Below are positions 6,876-38,676 of a stretch of 38,676 nt of DNA, piece by piece; the first letter of the stretch is position 1, and each line of letters opens with the position of its first letter. The position numbers were made by a program, and so were the translations under genes. Origin of the DNA: Candidatus Brocadiia bacterium (GTDB taxonomy: Bacteria > Planctomycetota > Brocadiia > SM23-32). Below the pieces are notes generated by a model, which saw nothing but the letters and a program-made list of their open reading frames with translations, did no database searches and was not told the origin of the DNA. Location: the NCBI GenBank assembly GCA_046538485.1, contig JBKHIT010000049.1, positions 1 to 38,676 of the forward strand. The letters run 5' to 3'.

Positions 6876-6968
6876 TATCTGTTACCCTCCCGAATGATAT
6901 GGTAGTGGTAACGAGCCGCAAAAAGCAACGTTTCCCCCCGGGAATTCTGGAGATTCTGCGTTTCAGTA

Positions 6969-8228: not shown

Positions 8229-8285
8229 TATATTCGCCCATTAACACAGAAAATCTTCATCCTTTTCACGGCCGCGTATCGGTCC

Positions 8286-8948
8286 TCATGGTCTGGGCCC
8301 ATAAATCGCCGTCCCAATCCTGACCATATTCGATCCTTCTTCCACGGCCACTCGATATGAATTCGACATTCCCATTGAAAGAGTCTTCAACTCAACGTTC
8401 CGCCAGTCCCCCGTCTGCATCTCGTCAAATAAACCCTTCAAACGTTGCAGATACGGCCGCGCTTTCTCGGGGTCGTCAAAATACGGTTCCATCCCCATCA
8501 AACCTCCCACACGAAGCATTTCACATTCGCTGATCTCCTCGAAAAACGAGCTTAACTCTTCGGGAGGAACACCATATTTACTTTCTTCACCGGCGATATT
8601 AACTTCGACAAAAACCCGGATCGGTTCGTCTACTCTTTTGTTGATGCCGCGCGCCAGACGTGGAGAATCCACAGACTGAATAACATCAAAAACGGGCAAC
8701 GCTTTATTGATTTTGTTGCGCTGAAGGTGCCCGATCATATGCCATTCGACCTGCTCGGCCCTGGCACCAAGTTCAGAGATCACCCTTTCCGCTTCTTGAA
8801 CATAGTTTTCCCCCACCATCTTCACACCGGCGCCAATACTTTCCGCAATTTCATCGGCCGAACGCGTTTTAGCAGCCGCAATTATATCGACATTTTCCGG
8901 CAATTCTTCACGAATAGCAGCATATTTCTCAGCGATTTCTGATGCCAT
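8286..8948 (-). CDS. yggS: YggS-family pyridoxal phosphate homeostasis protein
   Basis: AAAKT, GENYVQE, WHMIGHLQRNK, LSMGMS and VRIGTAIYG motifs. Confidence 0.95.
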   Translation of the reverse strand: MASEIAEKYAAIREELPENVDIIAAAKTRSADEIAESIGAGVKMVGENYVQEAERVISELGARAEQVEWHMIGHLQRNKINKALPVFDVIQSVDSPRLARGINKRVDEPIRVFVEVNIAGEESKYGVPPEELSSFFEEISECEMLRVGGLMGMEPYFDDPEKARPYLQRLKGLFDEMQTGDWRNVELKTLSMGMSNSYRVAVEEGSNMVRIGTAIYGPRP

Positions 8949-21630: not shown

Positions 21631-24600
21631 TCACTCTTTTTTGTCTCTCGCGATTTGCAATCGGTATCCTTCCAGCAGCGCTTTTTTCTGGGCATACTCG
21701 TATTGAGTCTTATTCAGCTGATACACATCTCGGATAACCGAAAGCGGGTCTTTTTCTTCCGGCAGATATGCAAGGCCTTCTAAAGCCGCACGCACAACTT
21801 CGGGGGGATATTTGTAATCAACCCGGGGGCGCCTCTTCAAATGCTCGAATGCGTCACGGAGCATTTCTTCTTCTCCCAAGCTCCCCAGTGCCCGACAGAC
21901 CGGTTGTGCGGGATCTTCCTCCGGCCTTTCGTGTGTTCGCTCACGCCGATCGGGCCTTCGGAACCGACTGCGATCTCCCATCTCCGGATCCATCGGCATG
22001 ACAGGTCTTCGTTCAGGCTCTCTTTGAGGGTCTGGATGACGCCGTCCGCCGCGTCTTTCGTCGCCCTCTTTCTCCTGTGGCTTCACGCGCCATTCTTTCA
22101 TAATATCTTTCAACATCTGTCGGCTCCCTTCGCTATCGATTTGGCGCGCGGCAGCCACAGCCCCTCTTTTATTCCAGAGTTCCGGACTGCGGTCGTATAG
22201 ATCTTTCAATGCTGCACCCGCATCGTACGACGGCGCTCGTGCTTTCAAAAGGACCACGACTTTCGGTCCGATCACCGGATCATTCAAAAGCCTTTGTCCT
22301 TGTTTCTTCAGAATCGATGCCACCTGTTTGTCCGGATGATCAACAAGCACATCGAGGACTTTAAGTCTACGATGGGCTCGGGCGAGCCAGGAATCATATC
22401 GGTATTTGATCGGTGCAGGCGGTTTGCGTTCCTTGCGTTTACGCCGAACGTTTCTGTCGCCCCGTCTATCTCCTCGCCACCTGTCACGCTGCTCAGTAGT
22501 TTCAAGAACTCCGTAATCGGTGCGGCATAATTCCTGAAAAGTGTCCTGGTAGTTCCGTCTGCCACCAGCAGCAGAACCGGCGGCCATTTGCACCAGCGCC
22601 TCGTAGTATGCAACGGGTTGTTCCCCGCCTCGCACGTTTAATAAATGAAGGATGTCATCTTTCACATTTATAGGGAGGGACGGAACTGATTGCGTGAGAA
22701 GGTTCCAGTAATAATTTCCCCCGCGCGCGGCAAACCGTCTTGCCCAATCCTGATAAAGTCCGCGGAGTTCGCCGCTCGCTTGCATCTTGGGGAAAACGAT
22801 TGAAAGCAAGTTTTTTGCTTTTGCATTATGAATATTGACAAGCGCATCGAAAAGCGCCCCAAGAACCGAAGACGGCATGTTCTTGGTGGTGTTTTCTTCA
22901 TGGCGTTGCGACCTGTTTTTATCCTTTTTCTTTTTGGTGTAGCTATAATCCGCCAATCTTTCAAAAACGGACCAGACCTGTCCGGGAGGGTTGCCAATTT
23001 TCCCAAACGCTTTGATCACGGCGACCGTCTCCGGCAATTCGGGAGATTGAGTCCTCAACGACCGTGCGCCCCATTTTGTCCGTTCCGCCATTTTTCGCAC
23101 GACTTTTGCAACTTTGGCTTTGTTCGCAGTCAACTCACCCAGGTCTTTCCCGCCGGGCAGGGAACGAATAGCACGGTAGGCGCCCAGTTCCATCCCCTGT
23201 CTCATAATTTCCCGCACACGTTTTTCCTGGCTTTCCGTAATATTTTGGTGGCGTTTTTCGGGTTGTTCCGGCCGCATCTCTCTTTTCGGAGCCCTTTCTT
23301 CTCCTGGCATCACCATTTCTTCTCGCCGGGGCCCATCGCCTTTTTTCTCCTCAGTGGGTTCCGAGGCCTGGATCGCGATATCTGGTGCCTCGTCGAACAC
23401 TAAATCGCTAATAGGATCGATTACTTTTTCATGCCCCGCACGCGCAAGTCCTGTAACAACGGCTATTCTGAGATGAAGTTGTTTAAGTGTCTCCTGATAT
23501 TTTAGAGGTTTGTCCTGCCGTTGGTTAGCTAACCCGAACAAATAATCCTTCGCATCATCAGTGCGCATATCGCCCATCATCTCCAGTGCCGCGACCTTCA
23601 CGTGCAGACAGGCATCACTCTGCGTCAGCTCTTTAAGAGCCGGAGCCAAGTCCTCGTAAGAACCCAGGGAGAGCAATTCCAGAGCTCTCAGTCTTGCTTC
23701 CAATTCTGCAGGCCGCTGGTAGTCATATCTCTTCTTTTTTTTGTTCTCATCTCTATATCTGTATTTGGGTCTGTAGAAAAGGCCTTCCTTGGTTGGAGAC
23801 CACTCCATACTTGGTTGTTTCTGCTGTTCCGAACGCCCTCTATTACGTTTTTTTTCTTCAAAGCGCAACCGCGGCACGTTCCAATGCCAGGATTTACTGG
23901 CAATTGCGATCAGATCTTTTTTGGCCGGCCACTGTCCCAGTTCAACCATCATATTTGCCGCTTCGACTCGAGCTCTCGTATGGCGCCCGTCCTGAACAAC
24001 ATTCCTCAGCAACTCAAGGGCCAATTGGGGATCCACTTCTTCCTTAAGCTGCCACAATTCTTTAGCAACATGCTCCGCATCTATATTGTAACTCCATCCT
24101 CTTTCTACAACCTCCTCGGCGGCAACCTTCGCAAAAGCTTCACTATCCGGTGGCCCCCAGTCCTGGCGTCGCCAGAGTTCCCGGATGTTGGAAAGATGTC
24201 CTGTATTAAGACGGGACAGAGCCCATTTAGCATCGAGAGCGGCCTGGAGCGATGCACTGCTTCCCAGGGCTACCAGGCCTATAACTGCCGCTGGATTACC
24301 TCTTTCCAGGGCTTCGTGTTTTAAAACGGCCACAGCATACGGGCTCCCGCATTTTGCTAAAAGGCGGGCATCGCGAATTGATCGGCTTCTATGTAATCTG
24401 TTTTGCAGAATACCACAAAGTGTAACCGAAGCGTTTGGACTGAATTCCGAACAGAGCGCGAGGAAATCACCATGGTGGATACGTCGTTTATCTTCACGTT
24501 CTCTCCCCCGGTGCCCGCGATCCCTTTCATTTTTCTCTTTCTCTCTTGTTTTATTGCGCCGCCGCACCGCGGATTCCAACTCAATCAGTTTGCAGAGCTG

Positions 24601-27258
24601 ACGCGCACCCGAACGACCCCCAATTTCTGTCTGCCGTTTCGCTATACGATACAGCGTTTCTATATCCTGATACCATTTCAATTTGGCTACTTGTGCCAGA
24701 GCTGCCGGCATGTTAGGCGTCTGCATTTTAATAAGATCTTCAAAAAAGTCTTCCCGTACTTTAGCCGATGATTTCCCCAGTTCGCTTTCCAACTGGCTGA
24801 GAGCACGGCCATCCGCGCTCCCCGCCAAACCAGCAAGCGTAGCGGCTTGAATTGCTGGTTCTATAGTTGATTCTCTCAAGGTCCGCAACGAACGGCGGGT
24901 TCCGATCTCTCCCAACATCAGTATTGCCGCCACCCGGACATTCTGGTTTTTATGGTTCTCAGCGATTCCGGTCAATTCCCGGGTCACTGATTCCCTTCGG
25001 AGTAAAATTATTGGCCGCAAAGACGAAGGATAAGCATCAACATTATTCGGCTCCCATGAGTTGAGTCTTTCCCGGATGATTGAAACAAGTTCTCTCTCGG
25101 GGAGCATAGGCAGTAATTCCTTTCGCAGAGCCTCGTCCTCAAGGCCCGAAATATAACTTTCTGAAGCGGCCCGCAACGCATCGCGGAATCGCGGCCAGTT
25201 AAGATACATGAAGGGCTGGCGATCCGAAACACTAAATTTGCGCAGTCGATCTTCGTAAAGTTTGCCCCGGTTCCTGCTCTTAACCTCCCATAGAAGCGCT
25301 TGAGCCTCACGCACAAGGTGCGGGCGCATATTTTTGAACACAAAATCCTCACTCTCCACCGTGCCCAGAAGTTCACCGTCCGCTTCGTGGTCTTTCACCA
25401 TATCGTGGACCTTCCCGTAGGCCGCCCCCAGTCTCTTCCTGCGCGCCAGGGCCGCCATATTTGGGCTTATAGCACCAAGGGCAGCAGGGATTATGTTTTT
25501 GTCTTCTGACCACAACTCAAGCGTCAACATAGGCCCGGTCCGGCCTCCACGCCGCAGCGTATGGTAACGTCGCACCTCATTACCGAGGATCAATTGCCCT
25601 ATCCGGAAACTTCCTTTTGGCTGATCCTCAAATATGTGAATTTCCGCCGGTCTTTTGTCCGTTCCCTTGATAACAAATGCGGTGTTATTGCCGGCAACAA
25701 TTTCGCACCGACCCCACACAAGCACTTCGTTCCTGGAGGTGTTTGCTGCGATGCCCAATTCCCCGTCGCTGCCGGCCGTAAGATGTACTCCGTTTCCGCC
25801 TCCGGGTAAAATCTCTTCCCAGTTCCCCACCGGTGAACGCCCTGACCCCGAACGTTCTTCACCTCTCATATTCTGGTTGCCAATCTTAACGGCTGTAAGC
25901 TTTTCGTTATCAGGGGAATGATATTCGACGGCCTTTCCCCTCATCTGCGCCTGCCAACCAAAATCGGTTTTCTTCAGGCCCTGTTCTTCAAGTTTCGAGA
26001 CAGGCATTGACTTACGCGCTCGCGAAGAAGCACGCCAGTTTTGCATGGCCCGATAGAGGGTTGCCAGCATCCGAGTCGGCACAGTGGGCGACAGTTCCGG
26101 TGCAAGAACACGTACATGGTGTATTTTCCCATGTTCCAGTTGCACGGGAACTCGAAAAGTATCTCGTCCATCAGGGATCGCAATGTCAAAATAAACGTAT
26201 GCTTCCTTTCCTTTAATCGCTGCCTGCCAGCTGGCGGAAGGCGCAACCGGATGCAGGTTGTCCCCCGCATCTCCCGTCTTCAGTGTTTCCAGATCCGGGT
26301 GCCGATTGACCACCCGGACTGTTGGCCCGAACCTATCGAGATATTCTTTCTGTGACTCAGTCACACGGATTTCGTTATAGGAAGCCTTCAGGCCCAGTAT
26401 CTGGGCCGTTTCCTCATCGCCACCGCCCCAAAAGACTGCTCTCATCCAGCAAAGGTCCGCCTCTTGTCTCATATTTTTATTTTTGCACCACTCGTACAAC
26501 CTGGCCCATTTCGCGGCCATTTGGTCCGCTTTTGTGGTTTCTCGGGCAGCCCCAATTTCTTGCAATCTTTCCAGATATTCATCCGCCGCTTCTTGGGCCT
26601 GTTCCAGATCTTGTTTAACATCATCGGGGACCGGAGATTCGACGGCGCGCGTATGCCTTCTCTCGGGCCTTTCTGTCTCTTCTTCCGGCTCGTCAGGTTC
26701 CTTTTCTTCTATTTCTTTTTCTGGCTCGGGGGTCGTCTCGACAGGGAGACCCGGCATCTCTTCCTCAGGCAGCTCTTCATCGGGTTGCTCTTCCGGCCTC
26801 TGGGCGACAGGTGGCTTTTCAACCGGCTCCTCACCATCATCGCCACCCAAAGACAGCGCCAGAACAACCGCTAACACAACGACCGCAACCAGCAAAACCG
26901 CGCCGCCTCCTAAGACAACAGCAATCGGAAAGCCTGCCCCCTTTTCTTTTTTCGCCCCAGCCGGTGCTCTCGCTGTAAGTTTTGCACCGCAGTTTGTACA
27001 AAATTCGGCTCCGGGTTCGACGGACTCACCGCATTCAGGACAGGTGCCCCCTGCATCCGGTTCTGATTCGAGTTCAGGCTCCTCGGCGAGTTCGGGTTCT
27101 TCCTCTACCGCGGGGCTGGCCTCAGGGCCTCCAGCATTCGCCGGCACATCGATGGTTGTCCCGCATTCCGGGCAGCGGACTTGTTTGCCCGCGAGTTCAT
27201 CACTCAACGTTAAAACAACTCCACACTGTGGATTCGGACATCGAGCTTCAACAGGCAT
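21631..27258 (-). CDS. Large membrane-anchored protein: two N-terminal Zn ribbons, TM helix, Pro/Glu linker, HEAT-like helical repeats
   Basis: 1875-aa open frame; CPNPQC..CPEC and CPEC..CTNC; hydrophobic IAVVLGGGAVLLVAVVVLAVVLALSL; HEAT-like VRVAAILMLGEIG, VKVAALEMMGDM and VVRAALEGLAYL. Confidence 0.75.
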   Translation of the reverse strand: MPVEARCPNPQCGVVLTLSDELAGKQVRCPECGTTIDVPANAGGPEASPAVEEEPELAEEPELESEPDAGGTCPECGESVEPGAEFCTNCGAKLTARAPAGAKKEKGAGFPIAVVLGGGAVLLVAVVVLAVVLALSLGGDDGEEPVEKPPVAQRPEEQPDEELPEEEMPGLPVETTPEPEKEIEEKEPDEPEEETERPERRHTRAVESPVPDDVKQDLEQAQEAADEYLERLQEIGAARETTKADQMAAKWARLYEWCKNKNMRQEADLCWMRAVFWGGGDEETAQILGLKASYNEIRVTESQKEYLDRFGPTVRVVNRHPDLETLKTGDAGDNLHPVAPSASWQAAIKGKEAYVYFDIAIPDGRDTFRVPVQLEHGKIHHVRVLAPELSPTVPTRMLATLYRAMQNWRASSRARKSMPVSKLEEQGLKKTDFGWQAQMRGKAVEYHSPDNEKLTAVKIGNQNMRGEERSGSGRSPVGNWEEILPGGGNGVHLTAGSDGELGIAANTSRNEVLVWGRCEIVAGNNTAFVIKGTDKRPAEIHIFEDQPKGSFRIGQLILGNEVRRYHTLRRGGRTGPMLTLELWSEDKNIIPAALGAISPNMAALARRKRLGAAYGKVHDMVKDHEADGELLGTVESEDFVFKNMRPHLVREAQALLWEVKSRNRGKLYEDRLRKFSVSDRQPFMYLNWPRFRDALRAASESYISGLEDEALRKELLPMLPERELVSIIRERLNSWEPNNVDAYPSSLRPIILLRRESVTRELTGIAENHKNQNVRVAAILMLGEIGTRRSLRTLRESTIEPAIQAATLAGLAGSADGRALSQLESELGKSSAKVREDFFEDLIKMQTPNMPAALAQVAKLKWYQDIETLYRIAKRQTEIGGRSGARQLCKLIELESAVRRRNKTREKEKNERDRGHRGREREDKRRIHHGDFLALCSEFSPNASVTLCGILQNRLHRSRSIRDARLLAKCGSPYAVAVLKHEALERGNPAAVIGLVALGSSASLQAALDAKWALSRLNTGHLSNIRELWRRQDWGPPDSEAFAKVAAEEVVERGWSYNIDAEHVAKELWQLKEEVDPQLALELLRNVVQDGRHTRARVEAANMMVELGQWPAKKDLIAIASKSWHWNVPRLRFEEKKRNRGRSEQQKQPSMEWSPTKEGLFYRPKYRYRDENKKKKRYDYQRPAELEARLRALELLSLGSYEDLAPALKELTQSDACLHVKVAALEMMGDMRTDDAKDYLFGLANQRQDKPLKYQETLKQLHLRIAVVTGLARAGHEKVIDPISDLVFDEAPDIAIQASEPTEEKKGDGPRREEMVMPGEERAPKREMRPEQPEKRHQNITESQEKRVREIMRQGMELGAYRAIRSLPGGKDLGELTANKAKVAKVVRKMAERTKWGARSLRTQSPELPETVAVIKAFGKIGNPPGQVWSVFERLADYSYTKKKKDKNRSQRHEENTTKNMPSSVLGALFDALVNIHNAKAKNLLSIVFPKMQASGELRGLYQDWARRFAARGGNYYWNLLTQSVPSLPINVKDDILHLLNVRGGEQPVAYYEALVQMAAGSAAGGRRNYQDTFQELCRTDYGVLETTEQRDRWRGDRRGDRNVRRKRKERKPPAPIKYRYDSWLARAHRRLKVLDVLVDHPDKQVASILKKQGQRLLNDPVIGPKVVVLLKARAPSYDAGAALKDLYDRSPELWNKRGAVAAARQIDSEGSRQMLKDIMKEWRVKPQEKEGDERRGGRRHPDPQREPERRPVMPMDPEMGDRSRFRRPDRRERTHERPEEDPAQPVCRALGSLGEEEMLRDAFEHLKRRPRVDYKYPPEVVRAALEGLAYLPEEKDPLSVIRDVYQLNKTQYEYAQKKALLEGYRLQIARDKKE

Positions 27259-28493: not shown

Positions 28494-31400
28494 TCATGGC
28501 AACAGCAAATTGTCTTCTCCCGTTTCATCCACCTGTGGCAGGCCCCGGATAATCAACAGACGGTAGTCGTGCCCTTTTACCTTCAACTTCAAAATTCCGT
28601 CTTCCCACTGGAAATTGTGACCATCGTATAGAAAACCCACTCGCTCTTTTTCACGCTCTCGACGTTCTTCTTCTGCCAACAAATCCTCAAAACCCGCGGC
28701 TACACCCTCTTCTTTTGACTCCATGCCACCATTGAGAGGGTCCCCGGGATCTTTAACTTTCGTGATATCTTCGCCCTCAGGCGGGTTATAGGTATCAGCG
28801 TCTTCGACCTTTAAATCTTTCACAGTCTCTGCACCGTTTACAATTGTCGTGGGATCCAACTTAAGTGCCGCAATCGCCTCGTCTTTTTTTGTATTTACTA
28901 CAACAAGTGCCGTACGGTCTTCTTGTTTGTAGATACTACCAACAAATTGGTTTACTTCGCTTTCAATCGGTGAATTGGGTTCCCAGTATCCGATAAATTT
29001 CGACCTGTCGGAATAACAACCCGCCTTTTCGGCATCTTTGAGAATCCCCCCTACATTGAAAATATCATGCGCGAGCAAAGCGGCCTGATAAGAGCGTTTC
29101 TGTCGGTAAATCCAGTGCGGCATTTCCACCGGTTTATCCTGGTCCGCACCAATTTTGTTCATCCACACCTGCGCGAGGCCCCATTTCTTGGGATTACTGA
29201 ATCGGAAACGTGCCATACCCCACATACGTATGAAATCCCTTTTATCTCCCCATCCCAGAAACCTGCCCTCGCCGTCAAGAATAAAATCCGCAAACGACAG
29301 GCACGGAACAAAATGAGTCTGCGTCATGTGCACCCAGATCCGTGGACGCAATCCGTTATCAATAAATGTCCACCGCAGCCGTTTCATAAACTCGTGATAA
29401 TCGAAGAATTCAAAACCCGGCTGCATCTCCCCATCGGACATCAGGTACGCGGGACCACGTTGTGGGTCTTTGAACGTCCCAATCCACGCATCGTCAATGT
29501 AAATCCCGTGGAGACAATCGTTCTTCATCCACTGATCCATATGCCAGATATAGCAATTCGTGGATTCCGGGTAGTAGCGGAAAAAACCCGATTTGTACCA
29601 GATTCCGCGATATTCCCACGTGTTTGGCGGCAATCCCACCCAGTTGCGGTCAATATAAAGATACGGACCGTGGTAACCGCGCATATTGTTGTAATGATAC
29701 TCGTGCATCCGCACACGCCCCCGAGCGGCCTCCCAATCGTAATCCTGAGGATAAATGTTGAACGAGCCCCAGTTACCGTCCGTCTTCAAATCCTGTTTCG
29801 AAAATGAATCCACAAAACCAAAATTGAGTCGACTCGAGCAATATCGCCAATCCTCGGCAAATGGACGAACTGGCGCAGGGTGGAGCCCGAAAACAAAAGT
29901 GTGTGGCTCCCGAAATTCGGTTTTTTTATGCACGATGTTCAGCCGCAGCACAGTCGTTTCCTGATCCCGAACGACCTCGATGGCCGGGATCTTCATGCTT
30001 TTTGTCCATCCTTTATCGTTTTCGGCAAACCACACGAGACCGCGGTAATCCCCAGCAAGGGCCAGATAAGGAATAAAACTCCCGCGCAACCTGCCGTTTC
30101 GTTTCCTGCGCAATTTGTGGCTCTGGAAAACCGCCCCCTCTTTTTTTGGTGTCTCGCCATACCATGCACCTGCTCGGAAATTTCGGGCGCCCGTCCAGTA
30201 TCCCAGATAGCGTGCCTCTTTCGTCTTTAACGGTATCTCCAATACAAATGAATCCAGCTCGTTCGTCTCGCCTGGAATGATCATTGTTCGAACTTTCATC
30301 AACCCGTCGAATTGGGTCGCGATGTTGGTTATCACGCTCCAGTCCGCAGCCTTTGCCCGCCCTTCCGTACGTACGACGCTTTTCCGCACGTCTTTTATCA
30401 CTTGCGTTCCAGCATTAGGGGTCAGTTTCAATTCCTCTTCGCCGACTTTCATCATCAGCCTTATCGGCGCGCTTAAAAGGCTCTCCCCCTGTGACACAAT
30501 TTTCTGCGGCCATCCATCGCCGCCAAATTTGATCTCGCGTCCCCAGCATTTCACAACATTCTTCTCCGCCTCCATGGGCGTCCACCCAGGTAGAACCTCA
30601 TCCTCATGGATTCCGACCTTGCTGTGCAACCAGGGGGGCGCCCCGCGCTTTTTTTTAACGCTCATATCGCCGATTTCTTGGCCGGCTTCATCACGGAACG
30701 AAAACTCAACTCGATGCGGGCCATAAGTCACCGGTACGTCATCTATTTTTACCGACGAGCGACCGTTGTGAACCGGGGGCATATCTCCTTCACCGATCGG
30801 CTCCTTCAATTCCGGCGCAAAAATGCGAAGGTGCACAGCCGCTACTCTATCACGTCTCGGGCTCAGCAATTCTACAGACGTTTTGACCCACTTCAGTGGG
30901 TAATTCATCGTGACGTCAGAATGCGCAAACGGCAGGTGTTTCAGCTCGGTCTCGGGCCAAAAACGCTGATATGCATTGGCAATTTCCACGGGGGTGAGAG
31001 CACGAGAGTAAAACCGCAGTTCATCAACCAGTGTCTGCTCATTGTTATACCGACGTCGGTTCTTGATCGGTTCCAAAAAAACCGATTTTAGCGTCTCGAC
31101 GTTCTTATAATTGGATTTGCTGAAATATGCCGTAGCACCCGGCATCCGTTTTCCGTTCAGATATAACTTTTTTGCATTCTCATTCCACGTACCGACGACG
31201 TGGTACCATTTCCCCGGGCGAATGTAGGGCGGAGGGCGTTTGTTGCGGGGCTGCTTGTGAAGTATTCCGCACGACAGGAAATCGCTCACATCACCTTTTT
31301 TGGTTTCGCAGGTAGCGCGCAAAAGCGGAACATATTCCATGGGGTCATGGAATCCCTGTTTTTTTCGGTTATCCCAGTCGTAGGGACTGAACCAGAATTC

Positions 31401-32594
31401 GAAACTTCCGCTCTCCACGTTGAGATTTTTATCAGCCCCGTAAATCGGCATTGCAAATCCGGTCCCGATATGAATTGCCGATCCGTGCACGCCATGCTCA
31501 AATTCGGGTTCCGGTACGGGCCTGTTTTCGCCAGCCGCGCGCGGGCCGAGATTGACTTTTTTCTCGGATTGTGCGCGGACCGGTTGTACAGTGTCTTCAA
31601 AAGCGGCAGTAAAAATACGGTCTTGATCCGTCCGGAGATAAGGCCAATCCTCCGCGATCGCGCGCTGCCCCGCGGGATCGGTCCACTCAGAATTCCAGGC
31701 GTAAAATTTCTCAAGACCCGTTGAGATGCGAATCTCGTCGATGCGTCCTATGAACCCAGATTTGCGCCGAACATCGTTCCCAATCCTTACCACACCCGAG
31801 ATTTTTTCCAGAGCCCCTCCGACCTCCTGCGATTTTATCTTTGCGATGCGATTGCCATCCACAAGGATTTGCACGTCAGGCCGGATTTTCTGCCGCACCC
31901 AGTTGACCATTACTGTGCGTCCCGGTCCCACACGCATAGCAATATGGTGCCATTCTGAAAGCGGTAACGCCTTTTCGGTCGACCCAATGGGTTTTCCCCA
32001 ACACCGAACCTCGAGTTTTCCTCCCGCAAGCCGTTTCAATTCCACGGCAGAAGGCGTTTGTCTTTTGGCTACCAAAGCGAAGAGCGTCGATCTCTCATCT
32101 TTTTCCGGGTTGAACCACGCTTCGACTGTTAGTGGCTGACCTTTGGTCAAATCGTTATACTGCGGCGAAACAACGCCGGCGCCGTTGTTTTTCAGTTCGA
32201 TACAACCGCTGAACTGTCCCTGGCCAACCCATTCGTATTGTTCTAAGGCTCGCCCATGCCGACCGTAAAGGCTACTGTCTTGAACGCTATTTTTACCGAC
32301 CGATTCCGCCCCTTCACTGTCCATTTCCACAAACCCACCCGGGCCCATTCCTCCACCTCCGTCATCACCATTATCCAGAACGTTCTCAATTTCTTCCTCA
32401 CTGCCCTCCTGTTCCCTGTTCATGTGAAACAAACCGAGGGTATCGGGATTCGCCTCATAAGGCAGCCAGAACCGTGAGTGGATGCGATAACCTTTGTTTG
32501 GAGCATCCGCCGTTGCGGACAATAGCGGTAAAAGGACGCAGAGGGTAATCGCCACGAGCACTCGGGCATGCAGCAGAAAATTCCGGTATCTCAT
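28494..32594 (-). CDS. Secreted protein with two LamG-like jellyroll domains and a putative glycoside-hydrolase-like (DUF6067-type) region
   Basis: Signal peptide from ATG 32594 (SD GAGG); LamG motifs LTVEAWF..WHHIA..GRIDEIRIS and GSFEFWF..WYHVVGTW..VDELRFYSRAL; PGWTP..CWGR, RGLVWFAE and GIYIDD. Confidence 0.65.
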   Translation of the reverse strand: MRYRNFLLHARVLVAITLCVLLPLLSATADAPNKGYRIHSRFWLPYEANPDTLGLFHMNREQEGSEEEIENVLDNGDDGGGGMGPGGFVEMDSEGAESVGKNSVQDSSLYGRHGRALEQYEWVGQGQFSGCIELKNNGAGVVSPQYNDLTKGQPLTVEAWFNPEKDERSTLFALVAKRQTPSAVELKRLAGGKLEVRCWGKPIGSTEKALPLSEWHHIAMRVGPGRTVMVNWVRQKIRPDVQILVDGNRIAKIKSQEVGGALEKISGVVRIGNDVRRKSGFIGRIDEIRISTGLEKFYAWNSEWTDPAGQRAIAEDWPYLRTDQDRIFTAAFEDTVQPVRAQSEKKVNLGPRAAGENRPVPEPEFEHGVHGSAIHIGTGFAMPIYGADKNLNVESGSFEFWFSPYDWDNRKKQGFHDPMEYVPLLRATCETKKGDVSDFLSCGILHKQPRNKRPPPYIRPGKWYHVVGTWNENAKKLYLNGKRMPGATAYFSKSNYKNVETLKSVFLEPIKNRRRYNNEQTLVDELRFYSRALTPVEIANAYQRFWPETELKHLPFAHSDVTMNYPLKWVKTSVELLSPRRDRVAAVHLRIFAPELKEPIGEGDMPPVHNGRSSVKIDDVPVTYGPHRVEFSFRDEAGQEIGDMSVKKKRGAPPWLHSKVGIHEDEVLPGWTPMEAEKNVVKCWGREIKFGGDGWPQKIVSQGESLLSAPIRLMMKVGEEELKLTPNAGTQVIKDVRKSVVRTEGRAKAADWSVITNIATQFDGLMKVRTMIIPGETNELDSFVLEIPLKTKEARYLGYWTGARNFRAGAWYGETPKKEGAVFQSHKLRRKRNGRLRGSFIPYLALAGDYRGLVWFAENDKGWTKSMKIPAIEVVRDQETTVLRLNIVHKKTEFREPHTFVFGLHPAPVRPFAEDWRYCSSRLNFGFVDSFSKQDLKTDGNWGSFNIYPQDYDWEAARGRVRMHEYHYNNMRGYHGPYLYIDRNWVGLPPNTWEYRGIWYKSGFFRYYPESTNCYIWHMDQWMKNDCLHGIYIDDAWIGTFKDPQRGPAYLMSDGEMQPGFEFFDYHEFMKRLRWTFIDNGLRPRIWVHMTQTHFVPCLSFADFILDGEGRFLGWGDKRDFIRMWGMARFRFSNPKKWGLAQVWMNKIGADQDKPVEMPHWIYRQKRSYQAALLAHDIFNVGGILKDAEKAGCYSDRSKFIGYWEPNSPIESEVNQFVGSIYKQEDRTALVVVNTKKDEAIAALKLDPTTIVNGAETVKDLKVEDADTYNPPEGEDITKVKDPGDPLNGGMESKEEGVAAGFEDLLAEEERREREKERVGFLYDGHNFQWEDGILKLKVKGHDYRLLIIRGLPQVDETGEDNLLLP

Positions 32595-32740
32595 CAGATT
32601 ACCTCGCTCACCGGTGATGAACTGGTTTTCCGTCAGAGTCTGGCAGACAGGCAAACTCCCCCTCAGCAAGCTACGGAAAGAGCCCGCAACTCCCACCGAA
32701 AAAATCGCCCTCATAACAAGATAATTTGGCTATCCCCTGC

Positions 32741-33985
32741 TCAGTGTGGCACTTCGAGTCCCGGGTGGGATTTTTTGAGCCCAGCCACACCTTTCTTTGA
32801 AACATGCGTTTTTCGAAGGTCACATAGTACGAGATTCTTCAATCCCTTCAAATGGCTCAATCCTTTGTCCGTAACGGGTGTGCCAGCTAAACCGAGGACC
32901 TGAAGATCTTTGAGGCCTTCCAAATGAGCCAGGCACTTGTCACCGACATTAGTGTCACTAAGCTTCAGAAACCATAGATTCTTCAATCCCGCCAGATGAG
33001 CCAAGCCATCCCCATCGATATCAGTTTCACGAAGTTTGAGGATTCTCAACTGGCTTCGTTTCTCCAGATCGCTGAGCCCGTTATTCGTAAGGTTCGAACC
33101 GGAGAGATCCAATTCCTCGAGAGTCTCGGAGTAGGCCAGATGCTCAAGTCCTTTTCCCGATACCTCCGTGTGGGAAAGGTCAAGAATCCGCAAATTCGTA
33201 AGTGCTGCAAGATCTGATAGACCTTTATCGGTCACGTTGGTTGACCTGACCGAGATCACCTGCAACGATTCGAGTTCTCCGACATATTCCATTGCTCTAT
33301 CGCTGATTCTCAGGCCTCCAAGTCGCAGTTCCTGCAGATTACTGAGCCCACGGATGTGTACAAGACCTCGGTGGGTAACTTTCGTGTACGATAGATCAAG
33401 TCTTCGGAGAGTGTTCAGGCCTTTTATGTGCGCCAAACCGGTATTACTGACCTCGCCATGTGAGAGATCAAGATCCCGGAGCTCTTTGAGTTCGTGGAAA
33501 TAACGCAGTCCCCAACCGGTCACTTTTGTACCGTCAAGCTGAACTTTCCGAAGTTTCTTGAGTCCTTTCAAGTGAATCAGGCTTATATCGGTTACGTCGG
33601 TACCGTGAAGACTCAGCAAGCGCAACCCTTCAAGCCCTTCCAACTGCGACATCTGAGTCTCTTTTGTATCATCCGGCATCTGAAGACCAGGGACATTCTC
33701 ACTGTTAATCTGCTCGATAAGAGCTCCCAATTTTACACTTTCAGCCTTCTTGTTAGGTTTAACCCACCAATACTGGCATTCCGGGATACTGACAGCCTTT
33801 TTCGCCGGCGTTTTTCCCAGCAATTTTGCTCGGAATCCAGCGCGCTTAACATACACTTCCAGAGCCAATTCCGAATTGAAGGTTCTGGGGCCGTAAGACT
33901 CTGAGTCTCCGTAGGAAATGTTCGCCAGAACTGTAATCCCCAGCAAAAAAGCCATGACGGTACATGTCGACTTATACTTTCTCAT
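32741..33985 (-). CDS. Secreted leucine-rich repeat protein (about 12 x 24-aa repeats)
   Basis: Signal peptide from ATG 33985 (SD AGGAG); repeats of L-x-x-L-x-L-x-x-T-x-V-T-D-x-G-L-x-H-L-x-G-L. Confidence 0.9.
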   Translation of the reverse strand: MRKYKSTCTVMAFLLGITVLANISYGDSESYGPRTFNSELALEVYVKRAGFRAKLLGKTPAKKAVSIPECQYWWVKPNKKAESVKLGALIEQINSENVPGLQMPDDTKETQMSQLEGLEGLRLLSLHGTDVTDISLIHLKGLKKLRKVQLDGTKVTGWGLRYFHELKELRDLDLSHGEVSNTGLAHIKGLNTLRRLDLSYTKVTHRGLVHIRGLSNLQELRLGGLRISDRAMEYVGELESLQVISVRSTNVTDKGLSDLAALTNLRILDLSHTEVSGKGLEHLAYSETLEELDLSGSNLTNNGLSDLEKRSQLRILKLRETDIDGDGLAHLAGLKNLWFLKLSDTNVGDKCLAHLEGLKDLQVLGLAGTPVTDKGLSHLKGLKNLVLCDLRKTHVSKKGVAGLKKSHPGLEVPH

Positions 33986-34296
33986 TCCTGACTCCTTCTT
34001 ACCTGTGTGCCCTGAAATTAGCATGTATTAACGCTGGAACACGCCATTGCACGAATGAACCTCCGCCGACTGGCACGTTCAGCGTGTCGCCGCAGTATTT
34101 AGCTTTCTAATCTGCTCAATAACAGTATAGTGTATATAGCCTTTTGTCAAGATCCAACGCCCCCTCACATCGCTGAAAAAACCTTTTTCACAATCAGCAC
34201 ACTTAACCCCTTTGTCTGTTGGGAGAATCGGCTGAATATGGTATCTTGTTCTCGGAAATCGTTATTTGACACAATCCGCATCCTGGAGGGAATAGG

Positions 34297-34716
34297 ATGT
34301 CTGAAGCTCACATCCTGATCGTTGAAGATGATGAAGACCTTGCAGACGCCCTTGCGCTCGCACTTCAAGGGTCCGGTTATACCGTAACCCACACCGTCAC
34401 CCGCGAAGCTGCTCTTGAGCTTGCCACCCAGAATCCACCAGATCTCGCCATTTTTGATGTTATGTTGAAACGGATTGACGACGGAATACAGCTAACACAT
34501 GAATTCCGTGCCGATGAAAAACTCTGCAACGTTCCCATCATCATGCTGACGGCAATCAACCAGGCAACAGATTTCAACCTGGATAAGGAAACCGACGAGG
34601 GTTACCTGCCCGTTGATCTATTCCTTGAAAAACCCGTTGATCCGCAAGATTTACTCGATGAAACAGTGAGACTTCTGCGTGAGGGAGGAGGTAGCTTAGG
34701 TGACATCGGAAGATGA
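34297..34716 (+). CDS. Stand-alone response regulator receiver (CheY-like)
   Basis: ILIVEDD, PDLAIFD (phospho-Asp), IIMLT and LEKP; no output domain; SD GGAGG. Confidence 0.92.
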   Translation: MSEAHILIVEDDEDLADALALALQGSGYTVTHTVTREAALELATQNPPDLAIFDVMLKRIDDGIQLTHEFRADEKLCNVPIIMLTAINQATDFNLDKETDEGYLPVDLFLEKPVDPQDLLDETVRLLREGGGSLGDIGR

Positions 34717-37123
34717 TATTATTCAACAGGCCGCTATTGTTGCGCATCAGATCAAGTCTCCCGTCAGTACACTCCGGACGATGGTTCGCACATTGCTGGG
34801 CGGTTTCGCGGGTGAATTGAGCGAAGATCAACGCAAAGTCCTGGAAGCGGCTGATCGCAAATCCGCCGAGGCGATGGAAACGATCAGAGCTCTTCTGTCG
34901 CTCTCTGAAGCCCGGCAACAAATGCCTACCCAAGAAACATGCGATCTCGTCCTCTGCGCTCAACAGGCTTGTGAACGGTACCGCGACGAAGCAAAAGAGA
35001 AAAATCTGGATCTTAATTGCACGTACGCTGCGGAACAAGCTGCCGTTTCAATGAGCAAAGACAATGTAACGGAGGCCCTTACCGCGCTCCTGGACAACGC
35101 CGTTAAATATACACCGGAGGGGGGGCAAATCCTTCTTCAAGTCTGGACCGATTCTGAAACGGAGCGGGCCTGCGCCACCGTCTCTGACTCGGGTATCGGA
35201 GTCCCTGAAAAAGAACGTGATAAACTTTTTCGACCTTTCTTTCGGGCCAGCAACGCGCGCGAAGTCATCCAATCGGGCACGGGCCTGGGGTTACCCTTTG
35301 TCCGAACAATCGCAGAAAATGCCGGTGGACACGTCAAGGTCGATGAATCAGAGTTCGGGGGAGCAAAATTCTCGCTTGTATTCCCCCGAGTTTGTCCATT
35401 ATCCAGCGCGGATAAGGGAAAAACCGAACAGCAAGCCGAACCAAGCTGCCGGGTTGTGGTAATCGGTGGGGTTGCCGCAGGCCCAAAAGTAGCCGCCAAA
35501 ATTAAAAGGCTGGACCCAAAGGCGGACGTCACCATCGTTGAAAAAGGACAGGTCCTTTCCTACGCAGGCTGTGGACTTCCCTACTACATATCAGGAGTCG
35601 TCGAAAACCAACGTGAACTTATATCAACCCCGGAAGGCGTCGTGCGGGGTCCCGATTATTTCGAACGAGTCAAATCCGTCCACGTTATGAACCGCACCGA
35701 AGCACTCAAAATAGACCGTGATAAATGTCAGGTCCTGGTCGAAGATATGATCAGCGGCGACAAACACTGGTTGCCGTACGACAAACTTGCCCTCTGCACC
35801 GGCGCCGTCCCGATCGTCCCCACTATTCCGGGTGTCCAGCTCGATAACGTCTACACGCTCCATGGGCTTGAACACGCCGAGGGAATTAAGGAAGACCTTG
35901 CCGAACAACAGGCGAAAGACATCTTCATCGTTGGAGGCGGGCTGATCGGCGTCGAAATGGCTGAATCTCTCGTTTCGGCCGGCTCGCGTGTAACCCTCGT
36001 CGAAATGCTGCCCCAATTGCTGCCGAATATTTTGGATCCTGAAATGGCCGAGTTGTTGCGCCGACATTTCGAGACCAAAGGGGTGCGAGTTATGCTCAAT
36101 ACCCGGGTAACGGGATTTGAGGGCAACGGCAGAATACGCCGAGTTGTAACGGATGAGAGGGCATATCCTGCTGATATGGCCATTATGGGCGTCGGCGTCC
36201 GACCCAATGTCAAACTCGCCAGCGACTCCGGACTCGACCTGGGCGAGACCGGCGCCATCAAAGTCGATGATCACATGCGCACCTCCGATTCCGCTATCTT
36301 CGCCGCCGGTGACTGTGTCGAGGCTCATGACCTCATCAACGACGAGCCAGCGTACGTTCCCCTTGGCTCTACCGCCAACAAACAAGGACGAGTCGCGGCC
36401 ATCAATATCTGCGGGGGAGAAGAATCGTTTCCCGGTATCACTGGCACAACAGTTTGCAAAGTCTTCGACTATACCGTGGCCAGAGCCGGCCTGACGGAAA
36501 AAGAAGCCAGGGATCAGGGACACGATCTTGTGATCGCGATCACACCCGGGCTCGACCGGGCACATTTCATGCCTCACGCCGCCATGATCATCACCAAATT
36601 GATCGTCGATTACAAATCCAAAGAGCTTATCGGTATCCAGGTCGTCGGCCCCGGTGAAGCCGCCAAACGGGTCGACGTAGCCGTCGCGGCAATGACCGGG
36701 AAACTCGACATCGATTCGATATCCAAACTCGACCTCTGCTACGCCCCCTCCTATTCCGAAGCTCTCGACAACCTCCACACAGCCTGTAACGTGGCAAAAA
36801 ACAAACTCGAAGGCTATATGGCGGGTATTTCGGCCTGCAAAGTGAAAGAAAAACTCGCGCGGGGCGAAGATATAATGCTTCTGGATGTCCGATCCCACGG
36901 CGAACTGAATGAAGCCAGCATCGATGGAAGCACACATATCCCCCTGGCAGCCCTCAGAGGCCGACTCGGTGAACTCCCGCGCGAAAAAGAAATCATTGTC
37001 TTCTCAGGCGTGTCCCTCTCCGCCTACGAAGCCGCCATCATACTTCAGGCCAACGGGTTCGAAAATGTCAAAGTCATGGACGGCGGCATCATCATGTGGC
37101 CACACTGCACCAACGAACCGTGA
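34700..37123 (+). CDS. Histidine kinase (HisKA-HATPase) fused to CoA-disulfide reductase-like flavoprotein and rhodanese domain
   Basis: H-box AHQIKSP, N-box LLDNAVKY, DSGIG, F-box and GTGLGL; then VVIGGVAAG, SYAGCGLPY, GGGLIGVE, FAAGDC, ANKQGR and YAPSYS; rhodanese LLDVRS..HIPL..MDGGI. Confidence 0.9.
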   Translation: MTSEDDIIQQAAIVAHQIKSPVSTLRTMVRTLLGGFAGELSEDQRKVLEAADRKSAEAMETIRALLSLSEARQQMPTQETCDLVLCAQQACERYRDEAKEKNLDLNCTYAAEQAAVSMSKDNVTEALTALLDNAVKYTPEGGQILLQVWTDSETERACATVSDSGIGVPEKERDKLFRPFFRASNAREVIQSGTGLGLPFVRTIAENAGGHVKVDESEFGGAKFSLVFPRVCPLSSADKGKTEQQAEPSCRVVVIGGVAAGPKVAAKIKRLDPKADVTIVEKGQVLSYAGCGLPYYISGVVENQRELISTPEGVVRGPDYFERVKSVHVMNRTEALKIDRDKCQVLVEDMISGDKHWLPYDKLALCTGAVPIVPTIPGVQLDNVYTLHGLEHAEGIKEDLAEQQAKDIFIVGGGLIGVEMAESLVSAGSRVTLVEMLPQLLPNILDPEMAELLRRHFETKGVRVMLNTRVTGFEGNGRIRRVVTDERAYPADMAIMGVGVRPNVKLASDSGLDLGETGAIKVDDHMRTSDSAIFAAGDCVEAHDLINDEPAYVPLGSTANKQGRVAAINICGGEESFPGITGTTVCKVFDYTVARAGLTEKEARDQGHDLVIAITPGLDRAHFMPHAAMIITKLIVDYKSKELIGIQVVGPGEAAKRVDVAVAAMTGKLDIDSISKLDLCYAPSYSEALDNLHTACNVAKNKLEGYMAGISACKVKEKLARGEDIMLLDVRSHGELNEASIDGSTHIPLAALRGRLGELPREKEIIVFSGVSLSAYEAAIILQANGFENVKVMDGGIIMWPHCTNEP

Positions 37124-37286
37124 TGCTGTCGCAATTTGAATTCTGATCACACCCGGGGAAATCAAGTCTATCCGGACGAGAATGCCTGCTCGGTTACGGC
37201 GAGAACGGCAATTGAGAGTTTAGAGGTGAAAGTAAACGGGAAAACGACATTCTCAACTCTTAACCGCCCTCATCCGCCCTTCCATT

Positions 37287-37314
37287 TTGCGTCCTGCCTC
37301 TGTTCGGATATACT
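37287..37314 (+). promoter_or_regulatory. Candidate promoter for the ATP-grasp/KamA genes
   Basis: TTGCGT-N16-TATACT about 40 nt upstream of GTG 37355. Confidence 0.35.
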
Positions 37315-37354
37315 GGTTTTTCTCACGATCCCCTTAATTGAGCGCAAAATCCCC

Positions 37355-38341
37355 GTGAAAATTGTACTGACATGTGACGCCCCTGCCAGCTCCGAGGTGA
37401 AGGGCCATCTGCCGGAAGATATCGGCGCTGAACACGACGCCAAGAGCACCATCCGCGCCCTCACAGATGCCCTCGCTGACAACGGCCACGAGGTTGACGT
37501 GCTCCGTCTGACACGTGATTTCCCCCGAGAGATCCAGCAACTCGACCCCGATCTCGTCTTCAATATCGCTGAAGGGATCCGGGGACGAACGCGCGAAGCC
37601 ATCGTACCCTCCTGGCTCGACCATCTGGCCATTCCTTATACCGGTTCGGATGGCCTCACTCTCTCTCTTACACTCGATAAAGCCCGCGCAAAAGAAATTG
37701 TCCGTGGGCGCGGAGTGCGGACCCCAAATTTCCGGCGAGTTTCGCATCTCGACCAGCTTTCGACCTCCCAACTCGAGTTCCCATTGTTCGTCAAACCCGT
37801 CGGAGAAGGCTCAAGCATGGGCATCCGTTTCTCCTCCCGCGTGAACGATCCGGAGGAACTTGAAAATCAGGTGACGTGGGTGCTGGAAGAATATGATCAG
37901 CCATGTTTGGTCGAAGAATTTGCGCCCGGCCCCGAATACTGCGTCGGATTCCTTGGGAATGGAAATCCCAAAACCCTGCCGATCATCGAAGTGAAGTGTG
38001 AGGGCAGTTTTTATTCGTACGAACATAAGAACCAACACAAGAAAAAGCTCACCTGTCCCGCTGACATCTCCCCGAATCTGACGCGGAAACTCATCCGCAT
38101 GGCACGCAGATCGTTCCACGCCTTCGATTGCCGCGACCTGGCGCGGGTTGATCTCAAAATCGACGCCGAGGGTCACCCCACTTTCCTGGAAATCAATCCC
38201 CTGCCGGGCCTGAATCCCGATTTCAGCATCTACCCCCACCAGGCCGAGGCAGGCGGAATTCGTTACAATACGCTGATCGGCCAAATTGTATCGCTGGCCG
38301 CCGAACGCAACATGCCAAAAACCGAAAGGATACCCTCATGA
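37355..38341 (+). CDS. D-Ala-D-Ala-ligase-like ATP-grasp enzyme (non-canonical)
   Basis: PYTGSD, LDKA, FVKPVGEGSSMGI, LVEEF, ARVDL and LEINPLPGL. It has FNIAEG where Ddl has LHGxxGEDG. Start moved to GTG 37355. Confidence 0.85.
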   Translation: MKIVLTCDAPASSEVKGHLPEDIGAEHDAKSTIRALTDALADNGHEVDVLRLTRDFPREIQQLDPDLVFNIAEGIRGRTREAIVPSWLDHLAIPYTGSDGLTLSLTLDKARAKEIVRGRGVRTPNFRRVSHLDQLSTSQLEFPLFVKPVGEGSSMGIRFSSRVNDPEELENQVTWVLEEYDQPCLVEEFAPGPEYCVGFLGNGNPKTLPIIEVKCEGSFYSYEHKNQHKKKLTCPADISPNLTRKLIRMARRSFHAFDCRDLARVDLKIDAEGHPTFLEINPLPGLNPDFSIYPHQAEAGGIRYNTLIGQIVSLAAERNMPKTERIPS

Positions 38342-38676
38342 ATGACCCCAAAGACTGGCACTGGCAACTGCAAAACAGAATTACCACGATCCCCGATCTC
38401 GAACAGTATGTCTCACTTTCACAACAGGAAAAGGCCGACATCCGGGCCGCCAGCGAGGAGTTCACCTGGAGTATCACCCCATACTACGCCGGCCTGATGG
38501 ACCCCCACGATCCCGACTGCCCCATCCGACGCCAGGCTATCCCGGCCGTTGAAGAACTGCGCGACGAACTCGGCGTGCCCGATCCGCTCGAAGAAGGTAA
38601 ACACTCACCTGTCGAACTCGTCATTAGGGTCTACCCCGACCGCGTCGCGTTCTGCGTCGGAAACCGATGCCCCGTT
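38338..38676 (+). CDS. KamA-family radical SAM aminomutase (5' part, truncated by window end; not in the supplied ORF track)
   Basis: Translated by hand from ATG 38338: MNDPKDWHWQLQNRI...ITPYYAGLMDPHDPDCPIRRQAIP...DPLEE..HSPV...YPDRV...RCPV. It overlaps the upstream stop (ATGA). Confidence 0.9.
   Translation, partial: MNDPKDWHWQLQNRITTIPDLEQYVSLSQQEKADIRAASEEFTWSITPYYAGLMDPHDPDCPIRRQAIPAVEELRDELGVPDPLEEGKHSPVELVIRVYPDRVAFCVGNRCPV

Follow-up and report, generated by a model that had tools for sequence, protein, structure and literature searches.

Background

Reactive sulfur and the redox state of CoA thiols are sensed by the one-component repressors CstR, SqrR and BigR and by FisR. Flavin inputs are found in NifL, Aer-CheA and MmoS, which are cytoplasmic redox-sensing kinases or kinase-like proteins, and PutA is a trigger flavoenzyme in which the redox state of FAD switches the regulatory role of the protein. 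We describe here a two-gene locus representing a protein family that would connect phosphorelay signalling with central redox and sulfur chemistry. The locus lies in a contig of 38,676 nt from a Candidatus Brocadiia bacterium (JBKHIT010000049.1 of assembly GCA_046538485.1, positions 1 to 38,676 of the forward strand), the whole of which is called the window below. It consists of a gene for a stand-alone receiver followed by a gene whose 807-residue product joins a histidine kinase core to a flavoprotein of the Npsr/CoA-disulfide reductase (CoADR) type that ends in a rhodanese domain. The fusion protein belongs to a kinase family that is real, conserved and unannotated and that has a candidate sensor derived from an enzyme.

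The closest described relatives of the enzyme half are the Npsr-type reductases. In the report on the A. fulgidus enzyme (AfNpsr), this protein is described as a dimer that has tightly bound CoA and uses NADH strictly; rhodanese residue Cys519 is the initial sulfur acceptor, and the enzyme-bound CoA then carries the sulfur to Cys42 (PMC7969121).

No paper on a kinase joined to a disulfide-reductase/rhodanese enzyme was found by full-text literature search, a search outside which most subscription journals lie, and the same search found no two-component sensor for reactive sulfur or CoA-thiol redox state. A preliminary description of this stretch of DNA, made from the sequence alone, had likewise not recognised the architecture as a characterised system.

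A histidine kinase core and a disulfide reductase in one reading frame

The receiver and fusion genes form an operon structure in which the two frames, both on the + strand, overlap by 17 nt, as also given in the preliminary description. The pair is made up of the following features.

34297..34716, + strand: receiver gene, a single-domain response regulator of 139 aa with an ATG start and a match to Pfam Response_reg only
34700..37123, + strand: fusion gene, 807 aa, with a HisKA-HATPase_c core, a linker, an Npsr/CoADR-type flavoprotein and a rhodanese domain
34700..34918, + strand: DHp (HisKA) helical hairpin, residues 1-73; Pfam HisKA at 9-72, AlphaFold2 (AF2) helices at 4-33 and 42-73
34946..35386, + strand: CA (HATPase_c) domain, residues 83-229; Pfam HATPase_c at 121-230, with N, G1, F and G2 boxes
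35387..35449, + strand: linker, residues 230-250; predicted disorder, no conservation of sequence, constrained length
35450..36814, + strand: FAD/NAD(P)H pyridine-nucleotide disulfide oxidoreductase module of the CoADR/Npsr type, residues 251-705; Pfam Pyr_redox_2 at 251-545, Pyr_redox, and Pyr_redox_dim at 586-691
36833..37105, + strand: rhodanese-homology domain, residues 712-802; Pfam Rhodanese at 715-800, with the catalytic Cys replaced by Ser769

The kinase half is a complete HisKA-HATPase core, as had been proposed. Its HisKA domain scores 30.3 bits against a Pfam cut-off of 26.9 and its HATPase_c domain is matched with an E value of 2.8e-22. Conservation was read from an alignment of the query with 120 homologues (A1, 121 rows). 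The phospho-acceptor His16 (codon 34745-34747, H-box AHQIKSP) is present in 119 of the 119 rows that are ungapped at this position, as are Gln17 and P21 in theirs, and N133, D163, G165, G167, F180, G193, G195 and G197 are each found in 121 of 121 rows. A search of 1.84 billion representatives with the core by itself shows a generic HisKA kinase, the 237 proteins recovered at E values up to 1e-30 being mostly multi-domain kinases with 25-31% identity. Short kinase-only proteins of 222-296 aa are also related to the core. Four of these (P0188, P0201, P0226 and P0267, 222-239 aa) comprise only a sensor-less kinase core of 36-42% identity, some with His-Gln in the H-box, and may be split forms, fragments or free-standing kinases.

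The earlier description of this kinase as lacking both transmembrane segments and an N-terminal sensor agrees with three lines of evidence. No segment of the kinase half is strongly hydrophobic: the first 250 residues contain none of the top five 19-residue windows, and the hydrophobicity maximum of the fusion protein (1.64, residues 764-765) falls within the rhodanese fold. No start codon is possible between the upstream stop and the GTG at 34700, which limits the stretch ahead of His16 to 15 residues at most. Finally, the stretch ahead of the phospho-accepting His is mostly 15-20 residues long in the 121 family members; among seven homologues with long N-terminal open frames no extra Pfam domain was present in five, and the remaining two (L049 and L065) returned no family.

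The second half of the protein is a full disulfide reductase with the redox motif and the FAD and NAD(P)H motifs that had been noted earlier. Cys291 (SYAGC, codon 35570-35572) is present in 121 of 121 rows of A1, and G256, G257, G261, G412, G414, E435, G537 and D538, which include both GxGxxG motifs, are invariant. The alignment of residues 251-800 with the A. fulgidus structure 6pfz runs from end to end (E value 9e-141), and Cys291 stands opposite the flavin-side active-site Cys of 6pfz and 3icr (Af Cys42 / Sl Cys43). An AF2 model of the fusion protein built on A1 (mean pLDDT 90, pTM 0.70) sets the domain limits at 83-229 for CA, 251-705 for the reductase and 712-802 for the rhodanese domain. 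Foldseek superposes the reductase-rhodanese part of this model on 6pfz with a TM score of 0.96 and an rmsd of 1.7 A over 551 columns at 44% identity. The best NCBIfam models are the CoA-disulfide reductase equivalogs TIGR03385 and NF007123, both under their cut-offs (404.2 versus 578.8 and 382.4 versus 458). From their conserved residues, both halves of the protein look competent.

A genuine and widespread but sparse fusion

Homologues were taken from a 5.8-billion-protein collection, where we consider the best 120 clusters listed in the class of similar length (740-839 aa), with longer and shorter classes outside it. These clusters are 48-68% identical to the fusion protein. They cover at least 98% of the query in 117 cases and 83%, 90% and 95% in the remaining three, HATPase_c and Pyr_redox_2 being present in all 120 and Rhodanese in nearly all. 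The ESM Atlas contains a 92-member cluster with the same domains. The claim of a genuine fusion with a linker of ~20 residues is upheld by this coverage, and the best 120 clusters are unsplit, the preliminary description having named homologues divided into two genes as an outcome that would speak against it. The same description had advised inspection of reads across the junction at 35390-35460. Contigs from an independent second study (run X2) span 35301-35561, the kinase/reductase junction, as well as 34640-34868, the receiver/kinase overlap; in both intervals they show substitutions only, with no gaps and no indel.

Genomic loci were collected by searching a species-level genome collection with two peptide patterns, which gave at least 599 matching stretches, and 581 of those listed encode relatives. 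Among the best 80 loci, 67 match the protein over its full length (from residue 20 or earlier to ~802), and the frame is single and intact in 60; four run into contig ends, and in one, L059, the halves are in different frames. This Phycisphaerae homologue (6001-8393) has a frame break near residue 510 that represents a frameshift or a sequencing error. Locus L084, which at first appeared as a 1201-aa fusion, was rejected since a stop separates two ORFs (open reading frames) of 625 and 561 aa.

The family spans about ten phyla and at least 120 sequence clusters, and its hosts are mostly anaerobic, sediment, mat and anammox-type bacteria. The closest of the best 80 loci belong to Brocadiaceae/Brocadiia, with 57-62% identity, and include a Kuenenia metagenome-assembled genome. 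Others are found in Phycisphaerae, Sedimentisphaerales, Pirellulales, Verrucomicrobiota and Victivallales/Lentisphaerae, and further ones in Thermodesulfobacteriota, Hydrogenedentota, Fibrobacteraceae (Fibrobacterota), Krumholzibacteriota, Spirochaetota and Anaerolineales. Though widespread, the fusion is sparse: none of 150 other genomes sampled evenly from the phylum of the window contains the full fusion, and 10 of the 150 contain a stand-alone reductase-rhodanese (nine of 556-593 aa and one truncated frame of 475 aa). Of 24 other genomes in the window's own family, 8 contain the fusion at 57-66% identity, one copy being cut by a contig end. The genome from which the window comes has one copy, its next-best reductase match being 31% identical. 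Judged from sequence, the fusion is old and maintained. Public names of the homologues are limited to 'FAD-dependent oxidoreductase' and a JGI sulfur-reductase/rhodanese label; with proteins named as an 'FAD-dependent oxidoreductase' only, the signalling half is invisible in annotation.

Near-identical DNA of the region 34200-37200 occurs in microbial-mat metagenome runs, one of which may be the source, and a second study has salt-lake metagenome runs with pieces of this region that are 95-99% identical. Tentatively, these occurrences would fit a mat habitat that is sulfidic and saline. Additionally, two genomes of the window's family (G155 and G183) encode CoADR-rhodanese-TusA-DsrE proteins of 827-833 aa (L098, 527-3025, - strand; L099, 600-3080, - strand), so sulfane-sulfur trafficking enzymes are present in those organisms. 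In the window's genome, with a completeness of 88%, no copy of this kind was found.

Loss of the rhodanese cysteine in one clade of fused proteins

The preliminary description had presented the enzyme as a full Npsr-type reductase-rhodanese, and in this respect it needs correction. The rhodanese domain itself is well defined, with a Pfam score of 44 bits against a cut-off of 22.2 and high pLDDT in the AF2 model. However, the rhodanese-loop Cys of 6pfz and 3icr aligns to Ser769 (codon 37004-37006) and the loop Arg to Ser774, both of which had been overlooked. With Ser in place of the catalytic Cys the full Npsr relay is impossible, and the protein is not to be filed as an Npsr.

The catalytic column contains 64 C, 51 S, 3 G, 2 D and 1 T among the 121 rows of A1, such that 57 of 121 are non-Cys. 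A wider set of 182 fused and stand-alone proteins was also classified; four were dropped as partial or without the motif, leaving 178.

Fused proteins, rhodanese site: Cys 64, Ser 51, Asp 2, Gly 1, unread 1
Stand-alone proteins, rhodanese site: Cys 57, Ser 0, Asp 0, Gly 0, unread 2

On a FastTree phylogeny of the reductase, 48 of the 51 Ser-type rows fall in a single clade (support 98/100) that includes the query. Every member of this clade is fused, and its only non-Ser member is one fused row with an unread loop. The domain is retained after the loss, with a mean column identity of 0.72 for the Ser type versus 0.75 for the Cys type. Other changes specific to the clade are A427, L433, T592 and H693. 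Residue 592 (36473-36475) is Thr in the Ser clade and Cys in 110 of 121 other proteins, both fused and stand-alone; this Cys and the rhodanese Cys, lost together, may cooperate. AfNpsr also has Thr at the position of residue 592. In Cys-type fusions the rhodanese loop, FCKISLRGYEAALI, is the same as that of the stand-alone enzymes.

A catalytic Cys that is lost only when a kinase is attached, in a domain that is kept, is as expected for an enzyme that has turned into a sensor. Since the pattern reflects few evolutionary events and not 57, it is suggestive and not statistical. The module of the Ser clade is probably a sensor of specialised function or, at most, an enzyme like CoADR, and the Cys-type and Ser-type subfamilies offer natural 'before' and 'after' states for the change from enzyme to sensor.

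Proposed mechanism

In the mechanism that we propose, the locus would be a two-gene module. A single-domain receiver would be paired with a class-I histidine kinase that is soluble and sensor-less and whose core is tethered at its C-terminal end, via a flexible linker of ~20 residues, to an FAD enzyme of the Npsr/CoADR type that includes a rhodanese domain. Both halves come from homodimer families, so the protein should be a dimer at two levels, through the DHp bundle and through the reductase interface. The reductase would bind FAD and probably CoA. NADH would reduce the flavin and the mixed disulfide at Cys291, and CoA-disulfide, CoA-persulfide or small persulfides would re-oxidise the Cys291 centre. 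The resulting redox state would shift the two N-termini of the reductase dimer in position or mobility. The tether, being of fixed length, would pass this shift on such that the reach of each CA domain to His16 is altered, and with it how fast His16 is autophosphorylated and how fast the phosphoryl group moves on to Asp54 of the receiver. The signal would thereby run from enzyme to kinase by allosteric coupling, with the flavoenzyme serving, like a trigger enzyme, as the input module.

We place the probability that a flavoenzyme-derived NADH/CoA-thiol or persulfide input reaches the two-component kinase at roughly one half. A fuller statement can be made only tentatively, namely that the whole family consists of soluble kinases that sense NADH together with CoA-thiol or persulfide through an entire Npsr-type enzyme, and that the clade of the window is a dedicated sensor, a pseudo-persulfide-reductase.

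A number of observations weigh against redox gating of the kinase, which the preliminary description had put forward. The linker has pLDDT values below 50 at residues 237-244 of the AF2 model, a mean column identity of 0.32 and a composition rich in A, E and P; a linker that is predicted to be disordered and is unconserved fits better with a loose tether than with a rigid signal wire. No reductase column combines a fused consensus of at least 85% with at most 20% in stand-alone proteins, one column (R620 versus K) separates the two groups at 70%/30%, and none separates Cys-type fused from stand-alone reductases. With almost no fused-specific columns, no dedicated docking surface is visible. 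A docking prediction of the kinase core (1-236) against the reductase-rhodanese part (246-807) gave a score of 0.00 (mark 0.32) and counts neither way.

Fused and stand-alone proteins are also intermixed on the reductase tree, with 12 changes over 178 rows, a rough count from FastTree only. Such intermixing implies that the kinase has been gained or lost repeatedly with no visible change in the enzyme. The first ~45 matches in a search with the reductase half are fused, and below these stand-alone proteins of 556-593 aa (58-61% identity) interleave with fused ones. The kinase halves are coherent, sharing a common H-Q-x-x-S-P box and a pairwise identity of at least 29%, and they have diverged in step with the reductase halves (Pearson 0.73, Spearman 0.66, 7260 pairs). 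This would point to one old fusion that was followed by several losses of the kinase.

Further weight on the same side comes from the receiver, which is rarely adjacent. A receiver profile was run on all ORFs within 4 kb of the fusion at 61 loci, the window included, and detected a receiver within 200 nt in 9 of the 61 and within 4 kb in 15 of the 61; tblastn with the window receiver, which is less sensitive than the profile, detected adjacent receivers in 3 of the 61. When 1483 flanking ORFs from the 61 loci were clustered, no cluster beyond the receiver (14 loci) occurred in more than 6 loci. Consequently, the kinase is usually an orphan. A last point is the Gln that invariantly (119/119) follows the phospho-His, where 256 of the 277 nearest cores have E or D.

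Alternative explanations

The main alternative treats the protein as a loose 'Rosetta-stone' fusion with no redox gating, in which the reductase provides dimerisation, co-expression or co-localisation, or is itself the regulated output. In the output variant the phosphorylated receiver, or the nucleotide state of the kinase, would act on the enzyme, and the kinase would be constitutive or controlled by a partner. The disordered and unconserved linker, the lack of fused-specific residues in the reductase and the intermixed tree all speak for such an arrangement. So does the stand-alone rhodanese loop of the Cys-type fusions, enzymes that look fully catalytic, and so does a partner receiver without an output domain. 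Receivers that lack output domains often act by binding proteins. An input-free kinase would however be unusual, and linker length is constrained, ranging from 14 to 23 residues in the 121 family members (median 19) with 118 of the 121 within 16-21. Moreover, the rhodanese Cys has been lost only in fused proteins, which suggests a change of job after fusion, and most loci have no nearby receiver that could act on the enzyme. On balance, we consider a loose fusion unlikely.

In a second alternative the kinase half would act mainly in phosphatase or phosphotransferase reactions, or would regulate the enzyme as an ATP-binding domain, with weak autokinase activity given Gln17. HisKA kinases autophosphorylate with the help of an acidic residue that adjoins the phospho-His. 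In the fusion protein Gln17 (34748-34750) directly follows the phospho-His and the acidic E/D is absent. Among 277 aligned cores from the 149 nearest representatives this position is occupied by E in 219, D in 37, Q in 20 and R in 1, which makes the family's invariant Gln stand out. Additionally, the residue at H+4 is Ser in 108 of 121 rows of A1, which is compatible with the phosphatase motif. On the other side, His16 and every ATP-binding box are invariant. The 20 cores with an HQ box comprise fragments of the fusion family and ordinary PAS-kinases (P0257 and P0300 among them), some with SHQLRTP. Because ordinary PAS-kinases share it, the HQ box is a natural minority type and not a defect, and a kinase half of this phosphatase-like or regulatory kind is quite improbable. 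Finally, a frameshift, a chimeric contig or a mis-called start that merged two genes has next to no probability, for apart from L059, with its halves in different frames, no support for it was found, and it is excluded by the 83-100% coverage of the query in the best 120 clusters from many sources, by the intact frame at 60 loci beyond the window, by the gap-free second-study contigs that bridge both junctions, and by the 92-member Atlas cluster with all domains.

The receiver, gene layout and neighbouring genes

The window receiver matches Pfam Response_reg with an E value of 6e-17. Among the receiver neighbours of homologous loci Asp11 of the acidic pocket and the acceptor Asp54 are each conserved in 12 of 13 and Lys112 in 13 of 13. 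From its position only, we infer that it is the cognate partner of the kinase. Upstream receivers on the same strand are those of the window, L011, L012, L032 and L076. L022 has its receiver downstream on the same strand, L017 and L030 have theirs downstream but on the opposite strand, and that of L085 is divergent. Twelve of the 15 nearby receivers are single-domain proteins of 124-171 aa. Within the window's own family a receiver is directly upstream in L089, L090 and L091, and there is none at L092 (=L010) or L094 (=L014), both of which have enough upstream DNA. Synteny with a receiver, which the preliminary description had proposed to look for, is thus kept in the closest relatives but, with a receiver within 200 nt at so few loci, is not a trait of the family.

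The fusion gene starts with GTG at 34700, as read from the ORF, upstream of the TGA stop codon of the receiver gene (34714-34716). One further feature bears on its translation.

34681..34691, + strand: Shine-Dalgarno-like GAGGGAGGAGG, from direct sequence reading, within the end of the receiver gene

The end of its GGAGG is 8 nt from the fusion GTG, within the last codons of the receiver gene, and GGAGGG is found 5' of the receiver ATG. This layout of the receiver and kinase starts suggests translational coupling. A scan of 33900-37500 for promoters and terminators gave two promoter-like and two terminator-like matches, no more than expected from shuffled sequence (2.9 and 4.2, respectively), and none was usable.

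The rest of the window resembles planctomycete chromosome, with DUF1559, N_methyl, an ECF sigma factor, giant proteins, LptD/LptC, ThiC and UvrC. There are no sulfur-metabolism genes adjoining the receiver/fusion pair among the annotated neighbours in the window, and Pfam annotation of nine neighbours was heterogeneous. A D-Ala-D-Ala-ligase-like ATP-grasp gene (37136-38341) begins 13 nt past the fusion stop. All of its NCBIfam scores are under the cut-offs, and its Pfam match begins only at about residue 107-209, so that the listed TTG start is doubtful. The next ORF (38338-38676) overlaps the end of the ATP-grasp gene by 4 nt and exits the window, its 113 aa having no Pfam match. Directly upstream of the receiver gene is a gene for a leucine-rich repeat (LRR) protein (32741-34024, - strand). 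None of these neighbours (the Ddl-like gene, the downstream ORF and the LRR protein) had a tblastn match in the 80 homologous loci. The giant ORFs include one of 1406 aa at 28494-32714 (- strand) with Laminin_G_3 and a GH123 N-terminal domain, and one of 1875 aa at 21631-27258 (- strand) with HEAT repeats and a zinc ribbon.

Comparison with known systems

The fusion protein shares its redox Cys, dinucleotide motifs and C-terminal rhodanese domain with the Npsr/CoADR-rhodanese enzymes, represented by 6PFZ, S. loihica 3NTA, B. anthracis 3ICR and E. faecalis CoAPR 8A56. It also aligns across the residues of the 60-66 loop that is described for AfNpsr (PMC7969121). It differs from these enzymes by the addition of a 250-residue kinase and linker at the N-terminus. 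Furthermore, Cys519 (Af) / Cys531 (Sl) is replaced by Ser769, the same replacement as in the engineered C531S mutant 3NTD.

The CoADR-rhodanese-TusA-DsrE proteins, which also occur in Atlas clusters, provide a second comparison as they carry the same reductase-rhodanese module joined to other partners. Their extra domains are C-terminal sulfur carriers that extend catalysis. In contrast, the extra domains of the fusion protein are N-terminal and belong to signalling, and the sulfur-acceptor Cys has been lost. PutA resembles the fusion in concept only, as an enzyme that also senses its own substrate or redox state. It acts by DNA and membrane binding with no phosphorelay, and its regulatory part is unrelated in sequence.

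A parallel in signalling is with NifL, Aer-CheA and MmoS, which are soluble or cytoplasm-facing and lead from flavin redox state to a kinase or kinase-like output (PMC12540587). The part covered of this 2025 review of flavin redox switches treats PAS-FAD sensors and names none of the disulfide-reductase type, the word 'disulfide' occurring in it 0 times. In NifL, Aer and MmoS the input is a small N-terminal PAS-FAD domain that is wired via helices into DHp, whereas the candidate input of the fusion protein is a complete dimeric enzyme of ~560 residues that brings thiol/CoA chemistry of its own and lies C-terminal to CA behind a flexible linker. Should the fuller statement made above hold, no earlier two-component system would have been shown to sense the redox chemistry of CoA or persulfide, and this would be one of the rare cases in which a histidine kinase receives its input from a domain C-terminal to CA. 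As such, the family would offer a soluble model for the control of a kinase from behind its ATP-binding domain.

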